IMG/VR virus record: IMGVR_UViG_2897375277_000005
DNA length: 35,947 nt
Reading direction: 5' to 3' (one strand)
Origin: a virus
Taxonomy: Duplodnaviria > Heunggongvirae > Uroviricota > Caudoviricetes
In this document: positions 4,713-11,923 of the stretch, in pieces
Position numbering within the stretch: the first letter of the stretch is position 1
Layout of the letters: each line of letters begins with the position of its first letter
Notes under the pieces: model-generated
Seen by the model: the letters and a program-made list of their open reading frames with translations, nothing else
Told to the model about the DNA's origin: nothing
Database searches by the model: none
Translations under genes and position numbers: made by a program

Positions 4713-5102
4713 ATGATTGACGCTCATGACTTCACAAGATGGGTGCGCACACAGGACACCCGTCTGGCTCCCATTCTTCAGGGATTATTTGATCTCTACA
4801 TCCGTGGTCGTGACAACAGAGCACGCACCACAAAACCGGAGAATGCGGACACCCTTTATTTCACAGTAGACGACTGCTACCGCGTGGATTTCACACCACA
4901 CGGGCTGGCGTTGCACTGCCTGACACCACACGGCGAATCACTGCTGGCGTATTATGACTCCCCGGCCTCCGTATTTGCGGCAATGCTGGCGCATCGCACT
5001 GCTGGCGGGTGTGCCTCGCTGAGTGAATACACCGCTGAATTTAACCGCCTTTCCGCCATCTTCTCGCAGGAGTGGCAGCGCGTGACGGGATACCAGCCAT
5101 GA
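4713..5102 (+). CDS. hypothetical protein, translationally coupled to A
   Basis: 129-aa ORF; its stop overlaps the A start (ATGA at 5099-5102). Confidence 0.55.
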   Translation: MIDAHDFTRWVRTQDTRLAPILQGLFDLYIRGRDNRARTTKPENADTLYFTVDDCYRVDFTPHGLALHCLTPHGESLLAYYDSPASVFAAMLAHRTAGGCASLSEYTAEFNRLSAIFSQEWQRVTGYQP

Positions 5103-7939
5103 GTGAGTTTGCATGGAGCTGGAATGAACCACGGCCAGCCATTGATCCGGCCAGATTTACGGAGCGCAGGCAGGAAACTGAAACCGACCTGCAACGCGCC
5201 ATCCGTTACTACCTTGAGGCGGACAAAAGGGCACAGGAAGAACAGGAAGCGAAGGAAGAAGCCTTTTTCGCACAATCCGCCATGGGTAAAAAACTCATGG
5301 CATCCCTTGAGGAAGCCGGACAGCGTGAAAAGCTGGCACAGAGCATCATCAGTAAGCGCCGGGCAACAGAACAAGACCCGGTAGCCCGTGCCTTTGCCAC
5401 ACTAAAGGCACTACCTGTTTATCTGCGTGAACCACTGAGCCGCCACCTCTCTTTCCTGCGCAAAAAACAGGAAGCCGATCGCCAGAAAGGCAAAAAGAGC
5501 TGGCAGGCGGAACGCTATGCACGCGGAACCCTGCGCAAAATATTCGAACGTCTGGATCGCACTGACGGACGCTGGCTGACACCGGGTTATCGCTCCCTTG
5601 CCGGGCGCGAACGCCTGGACGATTTGCTTTACCTGCCGCAGCTCAACAAGCACCAGATACAGACGCTGGCCACCATGACCGCGGCGATGTTCAGCAGCAC
5701 CTTCGAAACACTCTGCGATGGCTTTGGTGCCAGAGATGGCGAGCTGACCATGGATGTAATGTTGAAGGCTTACCGGATGCTGGCCCGCATGGCGTTACAC
5801 CTGCACGCCATGCCTCCACATTATGACGCACTAACAACAGACAAAGACCGGAGGAACGAACCGGACACGGAGCTGCTGCCGGGCGCAATCCTTCGCCTGA
5901 CCTGTGCGGAATGGTGGAAACGCAAACTGTGGCTGTTACGTTGCGAGTGGCGGGAAGAACAACTCCGCGCCGCCTGTCTGGTTTCCAGAAAGACATCACC
6001 CTATCTGAGCCAGGACGCGTTAAGCGAGTTTCGCGCACAGCGCGAGAAAACACGCGATTTCCTGAAAAGTTTCATGCTGGAAAACGAAGACGGGTTCACG
6101 ATTGATCTCGAGACAGTGTATTACGCGGGAGTAAGTAACCCGGTTCACCGTAAGGCAGAAATGATGGCCACCATGAAGGGACTGGAACTTCTGGCCGAAG
6201 CCCGTGGCGACAGAGCGGTGTTTCTGACCGTCACCTGCCCGTCAAAATACCACGCAACAACGGAGAACGGTCATCCGAACCCCAAATGGAACGGGGCCAC
6301 CATGCGCGACTCCAGCGATTACCTGGTTAACACGTTTTTTGCGGCGGTCCGCAAAAAACTGAACCGCGACGGCCTGCGCTGGTATGGCATCCGCACGGTG
6401 GAGCCTCACCATGACGGCACTGTGCACTGGCATATGATGGTCTTTGCACATCCGGACGAGATTGAAACCATCGTGTCCCACGTCTGCGATATTGCCATTC
6501 AGGAGGACCGCCACGAGCTGGGCGATGACATAACTCCGCGTTTTAAGGCGGAGTATGTCGACGGCTCAAAAGGCACACCAACCAGCTACATCGCCACCTA
6601 CATCGGAAAGAACCTGGACAGCCGCGCCGTGGATGGCATCGACCCGAAAACGGGCAAGCCACGCGTTGACCACGAAACCGGAAAATCAATGGCCGAGAGC
6701 GTGGAGCGCGCCATCGGCTGGGCGCGCCTTCACCGGGTCCGCCAGTTCCAGTTCTTTGGCATTCCCTCCCGTCAGGTGTGGCGTGAACTCCGCCGCCTTG
6801 CCAGCCAGATGGCACGCAACCCGGAGGGCCCGCAACGGCTGAAGGATGACGCAATGGATGCGGTTCTTGCTGCCGCTGATGCCGGGTGTTTTGCCACCTA
6901 CATTGAAAAACAGGGTGGCGTACTTGTTCCGCGCAAGGACTACCTGATTCGCACAGCCTACGACCTCGCAGATGAGCTGAACGATTACGGCGAACAGAGT
7001 GTACAGATTTACGGGATCTGGTCGCCACTCATCGGGGAATCCTCCCGTGTGTGCACGCACCCGGATAACTGGAAGCTGGTAAGACGTAAACCGGAAGCGG
7101 AAGACAGCACCCACGAAAATGGTTTTGACCTTCAGGGCGGCTCTGCCGCCCCTTGGACTCGTGGCAATAACTGTCCCCGTGTACAGGAAACAGACAACAA
7201 CGGGACAGAACAGCCGGAAGAACGGCCAGCACCGTGGCCGCAGCTTCCTGACGGCGTTGACGTGAACGAATGGGTGCGCTCACTGAAACGGCACGAACGC
7301 CGGGCGCTGATGCGTTCGCTGCGTGACAAACAGGCAAAAAACAGCAGTGATGAAATGCAGAACTGGACACAGAGCCGCAAACAGCCACAGCCTTTGCCTG
7401 ATAACCACGAATTACTCGCTAAAGAATGGCGGGAGTCTGCTGAATCTCTCGGCCTGCATATCGGTGAACAGCAGATGCAGCACCTGTTACGGGGCGGCAG
7501 TCTGTACGTTGACGGCAGCATCATTGCACCGCAGGGATTTGAAATTGTACGCAAACCGGATACCCGACCGGACAGCCGGATCACGCAGCTCTGGCAGCGC
7601 CTGAGCCGTAACCACGGCGTAAGCAGCACGGAGATCCGCCATAACCCGGTCGCCAGCTATCTGGAACAGCTGGGGGCATCAGACCCCGAAGCCGCCGCAC
7701 GCCTGGCATCCACACTTCAGCAAGACCAGAACACCATGAAAACACCCGTTACCGTGCTTTCTGACATGCTGCGCGCCATCCGCGACGCAGAGCACGCACA
7801 GAGAATCAGTGAAACCACTGAACGCGCCCGCCGCAAAGCAGACCTGCTGCGGGGTGGCCTGACCATTGGAAACAAAAAACAGACAGAAACGGGATTCACA
7901 AATCCCGTAAATGAGCAAAAAACGCGCCGCGATATATGA
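5099..7939 (+). CDS. A: replication initiation endonuclease (P2 A family, rolling-circle initiator) with long C-terminal extension
   Basis: 946-aa ORF at the P2 A position at the end of the early operon. Relaxase-like core with HWH (VHWHMMVFAH) and tyrosine (TSYIATYIGKN) motifs. About 180 aa longer than P2 A (761 aa). Confidence 0.8.
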   Translation: MSEFAWSWNEPRPAIDPARFTERRQETETDLQRAIRYYLEADKRAQEEQEAKEEAFFAQSAMGKKLMASLEEAGQREKLAQSIISKRRATEQDPVARAFATLKALPVYLREPLSRHLSFLRKKQEADRQKGKKSWQAERYARGTLRKIFERLDRTDGRWLTPGYRSLAGRERLDDLLYLPQLNKHQIQTLATMTAAMFSSTFETLCDGFGARDGELTMDVMLKAYRMLARMALHLHAMPPHYDALTTDKDRRNEPDTELLPGAILRLTCAEWWKRKLWLLRCEWREEQLRAACLVSRKTSPYLSQDALSEFRAQREKTRDFLKSFMLENEDGFTIDLETVYYAGVSNPVHRKAEMMATMKGLELLAEARGDRAVFLTVTCPSKYHATTENGHPNPKWNGATMRDSSDYLVNTFFAAVRKKLNRDGLRWYGIRTVEPHHDGTVHWHMMVFAHPDEIETIVSHVCDIAIQEDRHELGDDITPRFKAEYVDGSKGTPTSYIATYIGKNLDSRAVDGIDPKTGKPRVDHETGKSMAESVERAIGWARLHRVRQFQFFGIPSRQVWRELRRLASQMARNPEGPQRLKDDAMDAVLAAADAGCFATYIEKQGGVLVPRKDYLIRTAYDLADELNDYGEQSVQIYGIWSPLIGESSRVCTHPDNWKLVRRKPEAEDSTHENGFDLQGGSAAPWTRGNNCPRVQETDNNGTEQPEERPAPWPQLPDGVDVNEWVRSLKRHERRALMRSLRDKQAKNSSDEMQNWTQSRKQPQPLPDNHELLAKEWRESAESLGLHIGEQQMQHLLRGGSLYVDGSIIAPQGFEIVRKPDTRPDSRITQLWQRLSRNHGVSSTEIRHNPVASYLEQLGASDPEAAARLASTLQQDQNTMKTPVTVLSDMLRAIRDAEHAQRISETTERARRKADLLRGGLTIGNKKQTETGFTNPVNEQKTRRDI

Positions 7940-8015: not shown

Positions 8016-8975
8016 ATGAAAATTTGTATCGATGACGGCTCCACCAACATCAAGCTGGCATGGACTGAGAACGGCGAACGCCGCAACGCCATCAGCCCGA
8101 ACAGCTTCAAGTCGGAATGGTCTGCGCCGTTCGGTGGCACGCAGCCCGCGAACTACATGCTTGATGGCGTGCGCTATGGTTTTGATCCGGTCAGCGATCG
8201 CTTTGTCCAGACGACCGACACGCAATACCAGTACAGCGATGTGAATGTCATTGCCATTCATCACGCGCTGGTCAAATCAGGCATCACACCACAGGAAGTG
8301 GATGTGGTTGTCACCCTGCCACTGAGCGAATATTTCGACACAAACGCACAGCCGGACATGGCCAACATCAACCGCAAAAAAGCAAACGTCATGCGCCCGG
8401 TGGCGTACCAGAACGGAAAAGCATTCACTATCCGTAACGTACGGGTTATGCCTGAATCCATTCCGGCTGGTTTTAAAGCACTGGCTGACATGAGTCCGTT
8501 TGAATCCCTGCTGATTGTGGATTTAGGCGGAACCACGCTGGATGTGGCAAAGGTTCAGGGACAACTGGCAGGTATCAGCCAGGTGTTTTGCGATCCACAC
8601 GTAGGCGTTTCCCTGATGGCCGATGCCGTACTGTCGGTGATGGCCACTAACGGTATGCGTACCAGTCACCATATCGCCAATACCATTATCGAACATCGCC
8701 ACGATGAAGCCTGGCTGCGCCAGCACATCCACAATGACGCGCATTACGACAGCCTGATGGCGGTTATTCGTGAAAAGGAAGAAACACTGAAACAACGAGT
8801 GATCCGCGCGCTGGCGGGTTTTTCGGGTTACGGGCGGGTGATGGTTGTCGGTGGCGGGGCGGAGATTGTGGCACCCGCTATCCGCGAAGCCTGCGGAGTT
8901 AATGCGACTTTCATCGCGGACGGGGTGCCACAGTTTGCTCTGGTTAATGGGCTGTACGCAATGGACAAGGAGTAA
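8016..8975 (+). CDS. parM: actin-like segregation ATPase ParM/StbA
   Basis: N-terminus MKICIDDGSTNIKLAW...ISPNSFKSEW...YQYSDVNVIAIHHAL...RKKANV matches remembered plasmid R1 ParM (MLVFIDDGSTNIKLQW...ISPNSFKREW...WQYSDVNVVAVHHAL...RKKAN). Also carries the actin-fold phosphate motifs (DLGGTTLD, VVGGGAE). Confidence 0.85.
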   Translation: MKICIDDGSTNIKLAWTENGERRNAISPNSFKSEWSAPFGGTQPANYMLDGVRYGFDPVSDRFVQTTDTQYQYSDVNVIAIHHALVKSGITPQEVDVVVTLPLSEYFDTNAQPDMANINRKKANVMRPVAYQNGKAFTIRNVRVMPESIPAGFKALADMSPFESLLIVDLGGTTLDVAKVQGQLAGISQVFCDPHVGVSLMADAVLSVMATNGMRTSHHIANTIIEHRHDEAWLRQHIHNDAHYDSLMAVIREKEETLKQRVIRALAGFSGYGRVMVVGGGAEIVAPAIREACGVNATFIADGVPQFALVNGLYAMDKE

Positions 8976-8979
8976 ACCA

Positions 8980-9291
8980 ATGACGACACCAACCAGACGG
9001 ATAAGTTTCTATCTGAAGCCCGCCGCCGTCAAGAACGAAGGCGAAGCATGCGCCTGGCTGGACAGCCTTACACCAGAAGCCCGCAAAAGCGGCCAACGTG
9101 TGGCTTTTCTGGCCGGGCTGGCACTTCTGAAAATGAATCCGGCAGAGGCTTACCGACTGGCTGCATGGGCTGACGATGAGGCGTTATCAGTGACACAAAC
9201 CAGGACAGAACGCCCCGCGTCACAGCCAGTACCAACCTCACAGATAACCAGTCGGATGGCCGGAAATATCAGGGCGTTATTTCCCGAATAA
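8980..9291 (+). CDS. parR: ParR/StbB-like centromere-binding adaptor
   Basis: 103 aa directly downstream of parM with AGGAG RBS. RISFYLKPAAV...LDSLTPEARKSGQRVAFLAGLAL resembles R1 ParR (RTIAFKLNPDV...LDSIPQGERSRLNRAALTAGLAL). Confidence 0.65.
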   Translation: MTTPTRRISFYLKPAAVKNEGEACAWLDSLTPEARKSGQRVAFLAGLALLKMNPAEAYRLAAWADDEALSVTQTRTERPASQPVPTSQITSRMAGNIRALFPE

Positions 9292-9354: not shown

Positions 9355-9690
9355 ATGCAACACATTGACAGAGAAAAAGCGCAGCGACTGATTGAGCGGA
9401 TGGAAGCGCTGGCGAAAGAAGAAAATGTCAACATCCAAAAAATAGCTGAATGTGGCCAGATAGTTCTTCGTCGTGAAAAAGACCTCAAACAACTGATGTC
9501 TGGCGAAACCAGCAAAACATGGACTTCAGGCGAGGAGACGATTTATTGCAGCTTCTGCAATAAATCTCAGTACGAAGTCACAAAGGTGATTGCCGGACCG
9601 TCTGTTTGCATCTGCAATGAGTGCGTGGATTTGTGCAATGAAATTATCAAGGGAGAAGTGACAGACCATGAAGAAAAAACGCATGAATGA
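9355..9690 (+). CDS. small protein with C-terminal ClpX-type C4 zinc-binding domain
   Basis: Residues 64-105 ([39 protein letters not shown]) are near-identical to the ClpX N-terminal zinc-binding domain ([41 protein letters not shown]). N-terminal 60 aa is helical and charged. AGGGGG RBS. Confidence 0.7.
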
Positions 9691-9750: not shown

Positions 9751-10275
9751 ATGAAAAAATACGAATACATGCTAATGAAAGAAGCACTGCGGGCTGGTCT
9801 GGCTCCCTGTCCTGTATCCGTAGAAGCTGTTGTTGGGAACACGATTTTCCGAACGCTGCGAAATCGCGTATCCGTGAAGATGATTCACCAACCACCCAAA
9901 TCTACCAGCATGATCTATCTGCCGCTGCCCGAGGCTATCAAACTTATGCGTTCGCTGAAATTTGCGATTTGGATGCAGACACAACTCAACAAAGCGGTGC
10001 AAAACACCTTCGTTAAGAAACTGATGCCGGAGCTTGCTGCCAGAAGTGCAAAATGTACCAGACCCGCACTTCAATTTGATCTGTCATTGATTCAACAAGC
10101 TACGGAGGCAGAACTGTACCGCCTGTCACCTCTCCATGATGCTCACACGGAAGCCTCAGAAATGTTCCGGCTCATGTTTCAATTTAATTTTGCCGTTCGA
10201 CGCACACGCATTCAGGTCAATCGCATGATGCAGGCGCAGGAAGAGCTGACGCAACACAAAGGAGGCAACCAGTGA
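9751..10275 (+). CDS. hypothetical protein (174 aa)
   Basis: ORF with GAGGAAA RBS; no recognisable motif. Confidence 0.5.
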   Translation: MKKYEYMLMKEALRAGLAPCPVSVEAVVGNTIFRTLRNRVSVKMIHQPPKSTSMIYLPLPEAIKLMRSLKFAIWMQTQLNKAVQNTFVKKLMPELAARSAKCTRPALQFDLSLIQQATEAELYRLSPLHDAHTEASEMFRLMFQFNFAVRRTRIQVNRMMQAQEELTQHKGGNQ

Positions 10276-10447
10276 GCAAAATTGACTATCAGGCATTACG
10301 CGAGGCGGCACAAAACTATCAATCGACGCTGGCGTGGTATGAGGTTGACGCGGGCTAGTTTTGCCGCAAGGATAATTCGTTTCAGCGGGTGATTTTTTGC
10401 GCTATCATTCCGGCAGTGGTTCACGATTATTGGCAGGAAAGGCAATT

Positions 10448-11041
10448 ATGAGCAGTAAAAAAAATAAAATAACATCTATGGCCGCAGCGCTGGCGGTGGC
10501 TCTCGCCCCTGTTCCTGCCAGTAGCATTGTGCATCATGACTTATCAATCTCCCGGCACAGTACGTCTACGCTATCCCTCCAGGACGTAAAGGATTCTGTG
10601 GCATACCTTCCTATTGATGAGGCCACCAGTTATATGCTTAACCTGGCTGATAGGATGAAGACACACAGGGCAAACCTTCGCATCGAATGGGAAGAAAAGC
10701 AGATCCCTATTATTCTGAAAAATCAGAAAAAAGAGACTCAGGAAGGGTTTGAAAGCCTTTTCCGTCATATTGCGGTATGTGCAAGTTTTGTCGAGGCTGC
10801 AAGGGTTGCGCTGAAAAGCGTACCTGAAAGTAACGCGGAACTGAGAAAAGAGATTGTCGCTTTTGCTCGTTCCGCTGCGACGCTCCGCTATACGATTGAA
10901 GATATTTTATCCTTCATTGAAAGCACGCATGTGCCGAAGAAAACTTCAGATGCTGATCTGGGTGTTACCGCCGATCAGGTTCGCGCACTTATCCGCAGTG
11001 AACATAAAAAGCTGGGCCTTAAAGATCCAACGTTCCATTAA
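10448..11041 (+). CDS. hypothetical protein with N-terminal hydrophobic/signal-like segment (197 aa), upstream partner of the YafO-like toxin
   Basis: AGGAAAGG RBS before ATG 10448. N-terminus MSSKKNKITSMAAALAVALAPVPASS; stop lies 10 bp before the next start. Confidence 0.55.
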   Translation: MSSKKNKITSMAAALAVALAPVPASSIVHHDLSISRHSTSTLSLQDVKDSVAYLPIDEATSYMLNLADRMKTHRANLRIEWEEKQIPIILKNQKKETQEGFESLFRHIAVCASFVEAARVALKSVPESNAELRKEIVAFARSAATLRYTIEDILSFIESTHVPKKTSDADLGVTADQVRALIRSEHKKLGLKDPTFH

Positions 11042-11050
11042 GGCAGGGCC

Positions 11051-11431
11051 ATGATTAAAGTCTCTGTCCACAATGACATAGAACTCCCCGCAGTTGCTCG
11101 TAAATATGCACATGCTTTGCAGTCATGGAAAAACGGCGGATCTTTACCCTCAGTCTTTGGCAACGAAGGGCAGTGGGAAGATAGCGGGCGTCTTCGTGAT
11201 TCTTTTGTTTTTAAGATTCACATTCGTTTACCTGATGAACAGCCGTGGCCTGCAAAGCTACCTGCCGCCTCGCGTAAATCAAACAGTTATCTTGTTTACT
11301 CCCGCCATTTCTTATATCCAGATAAGTATCAGCTAATCAGCATTATGACACCCAATGCGCATGAGTTAGCCCGTACATCCTACATGGCAGAAATTGAGCG
11401 CAGAGCAGAAGAGTTCCAGTCTTCTTTTTGA
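11051..11431 (+). CDS. YafO-family toxin (ribosome-dependent mRNA interferase family)
   Basis: 126 aa. HIRLPDEQPWP...SYLVYSRHFLYPDKYQLISIMTPNAHELARTSYMAEIERRAEEF aligns with remembered E. coli YafO (HIHLANENNPFP...AHLVYCQGAFDEQAWLLIAILKPEPHKLARDNNQMHKIGKMAEAF). Confidence 0.65.
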   Translation: MIKVSVHNDIELPAVARKYAHALQSWKNGGSLPSVFGNEGQWEDSGRLRDSFVFKIHIRLPDEQPWPAKLPAASRKSNSYLVYSRHFLYPDKYQLISIMTPNAHELARTSYMAEIERRAEEFQSSF

Positions 11432-11472
11432 GTTTTGCGACGACTATCTATCAATCCCTTACTAATCTGAAA

Positions 11473-11500
11473 AGCTGCCTTTTGAAGGCGGCTTTTCTTT
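11473..11500 (+). terminator. rho-independent terminator closing the cargo operon
   Basis: Stem AGCTGCC/GGCGGCT (one G-U pair), 7-nt loop, then TTTTCTTT. Confidence 0.5.
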
Positions 11501-11522
11501 CTTCCTGGCCTTCTTTCTCTGT

Positions 11523-11550
11523 TGCACAATAGTGCACAAATTTGCACAAT
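11523..11550. repeat. three helically phased TGCACAA direct repeats in the putative packaging (cos) region
   Basis: TGCACAA at 11523, 11533 and 11544 (10-11 bp spacing), followed by a T7 run. Confidence 0.5.
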
Positions 11551-11923
11551 TTTTTTGAACGACTTTTTACCCTTCCGGCCCGCATGGCGGCTGGATCCGT
11601 CAAGGATCCGTGCGCGCACAAAAAAACGCGCTTTTTCTGCGCGCAGGTGACGGGGGAACAGCCCGCGTTTCAGGGGGTAAATAGCATCCCCTGAACGATG
11701 TCGCAGCAACACAACAGAATGGCTGTATTTCTCACGCTGAGCGTGAAAAAGACGTGAGGGCTTTTGATTTGATGGGGTGGCAGATAAGGCCGTCAAAATC
11801 GCACTGAGGCGGCGAGAACATGCAGTCAGCGCGATGGGATTGCGTAAGAGCCTGACCGTCGATGATGGCAATAAGCTGGAAGACGTCGTGAAATTATCTG
11901 ATTGATACAGGAGCTGGAGAGTC

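Follow-up and report, generated by a model that had tools for sequence, protein, structure and literature searches.

The stretch of DNA analyzed here, called the window throughout, is a 35.9-kilobase (kb) viral record (IMG/VR IMGVR_UViG_2897375277_000005) that represents a complete P2-like Escherichia coli prophage of the P88/Xuanwuvirus type, with its integrase at the left end. This study was concerned with two adjacent genes in the window, which encode a toxin of the YafO family and a long partner protein that resembles no known antitoxin. The upstream gene (positions 10448-11041, + strand, ATG start, WP_000095653.1) is an open reading frame (ORF) of 197 amino acids (aa) and encodes the partner, a presumptive antitoxin or regulator. 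The downstream ORF (11051-11431, + strand, WP_000598767.1) encodes the 126-aa YafO-family protein. The two are separated by 9 nucleotides (nt; TAA GGCAGGGCC ATG); a first-pass annotation, made by a model from the sequence alone, had placed both ORFs correctly but had given the gap as 10 base pairs (bp). A Shine-Dalgarno sequence read from the sequence (AGGAAAGG, 10435-10442, + strand) lies 5 nt before the partner ATG.

A candidate promoter precedes the pair (10380-10408, + strand) and consists of a weak -35 element, TTTCAG (10380-10385), a 17-nt spacer and a -10 element, TATCAT (10403-10408). A strict sigma-70 consensus scan found no promoter, and the cassette promoter was instead inferred from a conserved block, GGTGATTTTTTGCGCTATCAT (10388-10408, + strand), which holds the -10 element. 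In the cross-context alignment this block is kept 5' of the partner gene in Escherichia, Mixta, Serratia, Klebsiella, Buttiauxella and Erwinia despite unrelated flanking DNA. A strong intrinsic terminator with a 13-bp stem, a 3-nt loop and a T-run (11469-11497, or up to 11507 in the annotated feature; + strand) closes the two-gene operon, so the toxin gene is the last before the terminator, as had been noted at first pass. Since cassettes in other contexts end in different hairpins, the terminator lies outside the conserved unit. The cassette has a GC content of 46%, whereas the window as a whole has 53% and the neighboring core genes have 54-57%. Two co-directional adjacent genes, a common promoter block and terminator, and a downstream product homologous to a known toxin are what is found in a type II toxin-antitoxin (TA) operon. 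In the window the two genes also happen to share one frame, with TAA and the three codons GGC AGG GCC between them (11039-11053). A stop-codon read-through fusion of partner and toxin was considered and rejected, because this frame relation is not kept in other cassettes; the shared frame is probably a coincidence.

The 126-aa protein matches the Pfam family YafO_toxin (PF13957) with 95.5 bits against a cut-off of 25, over profile positions 2-100 of 101, and over residues 25-126 it shares 34% identity with E. coli K-12 YafO (E 1e-13), which bears out its first-pass identification as YafO-like. The NCBIfam equivalog NF007377, which represents orthology to K-12 YafO, gave only 59.4 bits against a cut-off of 153. 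By these comparisons the protein is a YafO family member of a distinct subfamily and not an orthologue of K-12 YafO. Its predicted fold is RelE/HigB-like, within the RelE/ParE superfamily, and its best structural matches are HigB toxins. The family-invariant residues H57, R75 and H104 are present, and H57, R75, P101 and H104 are common to K-12 YafO. The subfamily comprises 54 clusters, and across about ten genera the toxin is 52-97% identical with 25 invariant positions. A profile search of PDB sequences retrieved no structure of a YafO toxin or complex. From its homology the protein would be expected to cleave messenger RNA (mRNA) and arrest growth.

The partner had no significant match in Pfam, NCBIfam, PHROGs, PADLOC or PDB sequences, and on comparison with YafN, the antitoxin of K-12 YafO, it showed no similarity, in agreement with what had been reported of it earlier. 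The partner family is small (23 clusters at 90% identity; 33 representatives in 1.84 billion proteins by profile search). Its members are mostly about 200 aa, together with shorter fragments, and all clusters with a named organism belong to Enterobacterales. The hydrophobic, signal-like start that the first-pass annotation had seen is also present. Residues 1-24 (MSSKKNKITSMAAALAVALAPVPA; 10448-10519, + strand) form a Sec-type signal-like segment with a near-invariant LAPVPA, and the N-terminus can be parsed into MSSKKNK, ITSMAAALAVALAP and VPA/SS, the slash marking the putative cleavage point. The n-region has a charge of +3, and a 17-residue uncharged hydrophobic stretch leads up to PVPA/SS. 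The segment thus has the positive n-region, h-region and small residues at -3 and -1 of a tripartite signal peptide; the Pro at -2 is unusual. In most family members the n-region carries a charge of +1 to +5, the h-region is mostly 14-22 residues long, and PVPA is followed by S, D, N, Q or K. This pattern was found in nearly all full-length members and in all 28 IMG/VR loci of the subfamily, and one member, P0102, has no signal. A Phobius signal peptide call for the partner is also on record (Rousset et al. 2022, Table S5B, PMC9122126). The distribution of charges, with a positive n-region and a neutral or acidic flank, predicts an N-in/C-out orientation, and the partner may be exported and cleaved.

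Beyond the signal-like segment, residues 25-51 form a low-confidence, Ser/Thr-rich linker. AlphaFold2 predicts a three-helix bundle for residues 56-159 (helices 56-84, 95-124 and 130-159; predicted local distance difference test scores of 80-93) and a further helix at residues 175-189. A Foldseek search of this model against PDB and BFVD returned only generic helical-bundle matches, all with E > 0.1. Residues 137-197 (10856-11038, + strand) constitute a C-terminal module made up of the second half of helix 3, a linker, and a helix with the motif LIRSEHKKLGLxxPxF, in which an invariant Gly and a near-invariant Pro lie close to the stop codon. Conservation in the most divergent family members is highest at the two ends of the protein, with 38-46% identity in the signal region and 43-52% at the C-terminus, compared with 7-26% in the other segments. 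The C-terminal module is a candidate toxin-binding element.

One family member deserves separate mention. In Erwinia tracheiphila ICMP 5845 (locus L025, 4001-4597) the partner gene seems to be frameshifted just past the n-region relative to a near-identical IMG/VR locus (L045, MLKKMKKATISQMAAAL...). The gene keeps an in-frame ORF of 190 codons from the next Met, starting MAAALALAIAPVPA, and the toxin gene is intact. The frameshift may be an assembly error, or it may mark a natural variant that lacks a functional signal n-region.

The partner and the toxin were adjacent in all 53 further loci fetched by either protein, which come from about ten genera, with a gap of -4 to +11 nt. The toxin gene was directly downstream in 11 of 11 loci fetched via the partner, and a partner homologue was directly upstream in 13 of 13 loci fetched via the toxin. 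The same pair is found in an identical E. coli copy (L001). IMG/VR was scanned clade by clade, since the broad YafO alignment is too divergent for a scan of viral contigs, and the pair was present in every one of the 28 viral contigs of the subfamily. The pairing holds even for partners that are only 24-27% identical to the window protein. In addition, partner identity is correlated with toxin identity (Spearman 0.88 over 55 non-independent comparisons), with the partner diverging faster; it is 24-25% identical where the toxin is 54-61% identical. The partner is thus a dedicated, co-inherited protein of an uncharacterized family unrelated to YafN. A search of the cassette for a conserved small antitoxin of conventional type, ORF or RNA, found none. 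Across nine divergent cassettes no alternative-frame ORF of at least 35 aa was conserved in position or sequence, there was no Rfam match in or beside the cassette (only a sub-threshold gyrA-RNA match outside it), and no tandem repeat array of the type III antitoxin kind was detected in or beside it.

DNA similarity between contexts starts at the GGTGATTTTTTGCGCTATCAT block and stops just past the toxin stop codon; the match to the Mixta and Serratia copies begins at about position 10338. Phage P88 lacks the cassette at this site and has a different small gene there. Elsewhere the cassette occupies several kinds of site. In an Erwinia P2-like prophage it lies in the same slot between gpA and the portal gene, beside hicAB; in Klebsiella and Buttiauxella it lies between a transfer RNA attachment site and the integrase; in a Xenorhabdus lambdoid prophage it lies between the Q antiterminator and the holin, a moron site; and in Serratia it follows the tail-fibre genes. 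One further site is chromosomal. The cassette is an autonomous, horizontally mobile unit of prophage cargo. It was found in 7 of 5,426 complete E. coli genomes. One of these, DSM 103246, carries an identical copy of the region, adjoining pheA/tyrA, where RefSeq names the two products 'hypothetical protein' (WP_000095653.1) and 'type II toxin-antitoxin system YafO family toxin' (WP_000598767.1). Partners 92-98% identical to that of the window occur in Mixta mediterraneensis (L020), Izhakiella australiensis (L021) and Serratia marcescens (L022), followed by the same P88-type cos-proximal DNA, which suggests that this phage lineage, or its cargo, has recently spread between Enterobacterales genera.

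In the window the cassette lies between gene A (with the parM/parR pair that follows it) and the portal gene, which is the gpA-portal hotspot. The cos-proximal region between gpA and gpQ of P2-like phages is a hotspot for anti-phage systems (Rousset et al. 2022, Cell Host Microbe, PMC9122126). The position of the cassette in this slot, its absence from P88 and its listing in the hotspot catalogue all mark it as variable cargo of the gpA-gpQ region, and this location is more telling than the description of the toxin as the last gene before cos. The pair is listed as P2-hotspot system 123, 'YafO_toxin', with 24 occurrences (Table S5B, PMC9122126), and both representative protein sequences of that system are identical to those of the window. 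The entry states 'signal peptide: protein 1' and gives no note, function or experiment (PMC9122126). The pair itself is thus already catalogued, and is uncharacterized; in the literature library searched, no paper describes the function of the partner or ties YafO homologues to phage defense by experiment. New here are its strict co-inheritance, the boundaries and promoter of the cassette and the RelE-like fold of the toxin, as well as the C-terminal module shared between partner families and the finding that long partners, often with a signal, are general among prophage YafO toxins.

This last point comes from distant YafO homologues, 30-35% identical to the window toxin, in phage CUS-3, the Flyfo siphovirus Tbat2_3 (from bat gut), Escherichia phage PhiR40_1 and the Klebsiella phage-plasmid GArcari. 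The first-pass annotation had regarded the pairing as atypical. The partner is indeed unlike YafN, but the pairing is no oddity of one locus, since all five of the prophage or phage-plasmid YafO clades sampled have an upstream gene for a partner of 173-217 aa without a Pfam domain. Partner and toxin measure 199 and 139 aa in CUS-3, 190 and 138 aa in Flyfo, 179 and 144 aa in PhiR40_1 (where the partner is called 'YafM') and 175 and 138 aa in GArcari. As in the window, a 175-200-aa upstream protein is encoded adjacent to or overlapping the YafO gene in these four, although their partners are not alignable to the window partner outside the C-terminus. The partners of CUS-3 and Flyfo have no signal, and those of PhiR40_1 and GArcari have signal-like N-termini, so that signal-like N-termini occur in three of the five partner clades (those of the window, of PhiR40_1 and of the Klebsiella phage-plasmid). 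Among IMG/VR loci of the PhiR40 type, all those that extend far enough upstream encode a partner with a signal-like start. In an hhalign comparison the final 59 residues of the window family aligned with the signal-less Flyfo-type family (190 aa) at a probability of 93% (E 3.2e-7), and the CUS-3 partner ends in the same terminal motif as the window partner. Judged by these alignments, the C-terminal module is the common denominator of YafO partners and the signal peptide a recurrent, dispensable addition.

The first-pass annotation had left a choice between a new class of antitoxin or trigger-sensor and a toxin that is regulated in some different way. A new antitoxin or sensor class is best supported, because the partner is dedicated, co-inherited and unlike YafN and because no conserved small antitoxin accompanies the toxin. 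We favor, with about even confidence, a type II-like TA or abortive-infection module in which the 197-aa protein represents a new class of antitoxin that neutralizes YafO through its C-terminal module. The downstream gene would encode a ribosome-dependent mRNA endonuclease of the YafO family with a RelE fold, and the upstream gene a dedicated neutralizing partner whose C-terminal motif, LIxSEHKxLGLxxPxF, most likely contacts the toxin. The pair would be transcribed from its own promoter, with translation of the toxin coupled to the partner gene, and in a lysogen the complex would be inert. If the supply of partner failed, or if a phage factor interfered, for instance when a superinfecting phage shuts off the host or when the element is lost, free YafO would cut translating mRNAs and arrest the cell, the outcome being abortive infection or addiction. 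Unbound partner would be exported by Sec or held at the membrane, which could provide the lability that otherwise comes from proteolysis. The antitoxin-first gene order and the tight spacing of the cassette are like those of type II TA operons. For direct neutralization the support is indirect and comes from the co-divergence of the two proteins and from the shared C-terminal module.

Several points weigh against this reading. First, the toxicity of this YafO homologue and its binding by the partner are themselves inferred. Secondly, neither protein matched the model of a described defense system (PADLOC-DB v2, no match at E <= 1). Third, the partner belongs to no known antitoxin family, and no DNA-binding domain was detected in it, the only candidate being a FaeA-like match below threshold (16.6 bits against a cut-off of 20.7); classical autoregulation is therefore unsupported. 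Fourth, system 123 was outside the set of systems cloned and tested, with 'YafO' appearing only in the catalogue file, and only about one third of the cloned hotspot systems were active (PMC9122126). Lastly, a genuine Sec signal with N-in topology should place the partner in the periplasm, away from a cytoplasmic toxin, and a simple sequestering antitoxin is hard to reconcile with a conserved Sec signal that predicts a periplasmic partner. The signal peptide could be accommodated in any of three possible ways: export of free partner may supply its lability, the protein may have a dual localization, or it may act as a sensor on the envelope side.

The rather unlikely but strongest alternative takes the signal at face value. 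The partner would be exported, either to the periplasm or anchored by an uncleaved signal, where it would act, for instance to sense or block phage entry, and YafO would not be controlled by stoichiometric sequestration. In one version of this proposal, precursor that piles up when infection disturbs Sec or the proton-motive force could act as an activator or inhibitor of YafO. Few parts of the partner are as well conserved as its signal-like N-terminus, an unusual finding for a generic signal peptide, and it is consistent with this proposal that such N-termini recur in three of five clades, that Phobius calls a signal peptide and that the charges predict N-in/C-out. However, a partner that is cleaved or anchored with its N-terminus inside leaves no more than 7 residues in the cytoplasm, with no evident path to the ribonuclease. 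In addition, the partners of CUS-3 and Flyfo and the family member P0102 have no signal and yet the C-terminal module is shared; the core function of the partner is therefore cytoplasmic.

Unlikely as well, and less so than the alternatives that follow, is an export-coupled antitoxin, in which the Sec pathway would set the cytoplasmic level of the partner, through post-translational export or SecM-like monitoring, and hence the activity of YafO. If true, the module would be a sentinel that turns a disturbance of the envelope or of secretion by a phage into translational shutdown. It would be the first TA logic to rely on protein export, and not on proteolysis, for lability or sensing. With signal-bearing partners in three of the five clades sampled, it would hold for several clades of prophage YafO toxins.

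It is quite improbable that the pair is no longer a toxin system at all, that is, that a domesticated or attenuated RelE-fold protein and a helical partner serve some other prophage function, such as lysogeny or host physiology, and cause no growth arrest. The score below the NCBIfam YafO equivalog cut-off and the absence of a defense-model match would fit such a role. Activity does not follow from the conservation of H57, R75 and H104, and we know of no experimental mapping of the catalytic residues of YafO. The apparent frameshift in the partner n-region of E. tracheiphila, beside an intact toxin gene, could be taken in the same sense, but that partner keeps its in-frame 190-codon ORF. Domestication is further opposed by the strong conservation of the toxin over about ten genera, including residues shared with the toxic K-12 YafO, and a strict need for an adjacent partner is expected under addiction-type selection.

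Very improbable is an export-monitoring leader like SecM, VemP or MifM, in which stalling of the nascent partner chain, and its release under Sec pulling, would set translation of the toxin. The layout is suggestive. The best-conserved segments are the signal region and the last 23 or so residues, which reach to within 0-4 residues of the stop codon and lie beside the toxin start, the toxin gene starts 0-11 nt downstream, and the invariant Gly and near-invariant Pro lie near the stop; a signal peptide, a C-terminal motif and a downstream gene make up the architecture of SecM-secA. Against this, the middle of the partner is a confidently predicted three-helix bundle with residues invariant in the close family, stalling at the last codons would hide the Shine-Dalgarno sequence and start codon of the toxin under the ribosome and not expose them, and the signal-less clades keep the same C-terminal motif. 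An mRNA hairpin that hides the ribosome-binding site of the toxin does form in the window (z = -0.55), but it is not conserved (consensus of 4 pairs, -1.5 kcal/mol), so that no conserved structure sequesters the site.

It is scarcely credible that the cassette or its flanks hide a conventional small antitoxin (protein or RNA) and that the 197-aa protein is unrelated cargo. For this there is nothing positive except that short ORFs and small RNAs are easily missed, and against it stand the lack of a conserved alternative ORF, Rfam match or repeat array, the confinement of inter-context DNA homology to the promoter block and two genes, and the pairing of the 197-aa family with the toxin in every locus.

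The neighborhood of the cassette contains several further features. Replication gene A (5072-7939) is followed by a parM/parR pair (8016-9291, + strand; StbA_N at 273 bits and 'Plasmid_stab_B'). The purpose of an actin-type segregation module of the plasmid partition kind in an integrating P2-like prophage is not obvious; parM/parR is the most frequent entry of the gpA-Q hotspot (system 1, 4,592 occurrences; Rousset et al. 2022, PMC9122126). Next comes a 111-aa protein (9355-9690, + strand) with an N-terminal half of no known kind and a ClpX-type C4 zinc finger (Pfam zf-C4_ClpX, 59.9 bits; phrog_6797) without an ATPase domain. Such a stand-alone ClpX N-domain could be a competitor for ClpX adaptors or substrates. 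This gene, two genes upstream of the cassette, was considered as a third component of the module and rejected: it is present in phage P88 and in the window but missing from the otherwise identical DSM 103246 prophage, and the gene tables inspected for the other loci do not list it either. A 174-aa ORF (9751-10275, + strand), with no match in Pfam, NCBIfam, PHROGs or PADLOC, travels with the YafO cassette in this phage lineage; phage P88 has a 112-aa gene there.

At the left junction, outside the module, is a truncated ead/Ea22-like fragment (10273-10344, + strand), which RefSeq annotates as a partial pseudogene in the identical prophage. A 44-nt stretch of this fragment alone matches about 310 further E. 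coli genomes, mostly in lambdoid prophages, and the fragment looks like a recombination scar that records acquisition of the cargo. On the right, the block at 11520-11900 is a conserved cos-proximal region common to P88-like phages, followed by the portal and terminase genes on the minus strand from 11974. Three tandem 10-mers containing TGCACAA lie at 11523-11550 (+ strand; Tandem Repeats Finder period 10, 2.8 copies) and double as an imperfect palindrome. The array is kept in Mixta, Serratia and Erwinia P2-like phages just 3' of their cargo and is possibly a protein-binding site near cos. A P2 cos sequence used as query had no match in the window at up to 3 mismatches, and cos itself was not located. 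A further observation concerns the Erwinia pyrifoliae P2-like prophage (L004, 3656-4287), in which a hicA/hicB pair lies directly upstream of the YafO cassette, so that two ribonuclease-type TA modules are stacked in one hotspot.

These results matter for several reasons. First, YafO is among the least understood RelE-type toxins, and its usual companion in enterobacterial prophages is a family of helical proteins of about 200 residues, many with a secretion signal, and not a YafN-like antitoxin. Secondly, if the partner neutralizes YafO it would represent a new antitoxin class, and the question is raised of how a cytoplasmic ribonuclease is controlled by a protein bound for export. Third, the cassette is 1.1 kb long, has its own promoter and comes from a validated defense hotspot, and it is thus directly clonable for an abortive-infection assay.

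Four known systems invite comparison with the window pair. The old and tin genes of P2 occupy the same gpA-Q slot near cos and have the same proposed role, exclusion of competing phages, but their proteins and mechanisms are unrelated to the window pair, with no sequence or domain similarity. In the toxin-antitoxin-chaperone (TAC) systems (HigB-HigA-SecB-like chaperone, Mycobacterium tuberculosis Rv1955-57) export stress has been proposed to free the toxin (PMC4257090). These systems combine a RelE-superfamily toxin with an antitoxin tied to Sec export, and HigB toxins are the best structural matches of the window toxin. However, their third gene encodes a SecB-like chaperone that binds the antitoxin, whereas the window has no chaperone gene and the partner itself bears the signal peptide; the resemblance is conceptual only. 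In SecM-secA, VemP-secDF2 and MifM-yidC2 the protein encoded directly 5' of the regulated gene combines a signal or anchor at its N-terminus with a conserved C-terminal motif. The window partner likewise has a signal and a C-terminal motif upstream of a downstream gene, but it is folded and conserved, it has no conserved regulatory mRNA structure, and its signal-less relatives keep the motif. Lastly, K-12 YafO is a ribosome-dependent mRNA interferase, reported to cleave at a fixed distance 3' of start codons, and yafN-yafO is a type II TA pair in the dinB operon. The K-12 and window toxins belong to the same Pfam family, PF13957, and in both pairs an upstream gene is tightly coupled to the toxin gene. 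YafN, which the first-pass annotation had described as RelB/DinJ-like, is of the Phd/YefM type by Pfam and has 97 aa, whereas the window partner is a helical protein of 197 aa with a signal peptide. The K-12 pair is part of the SOS dinB operon, and the window pair is prophage cargo.

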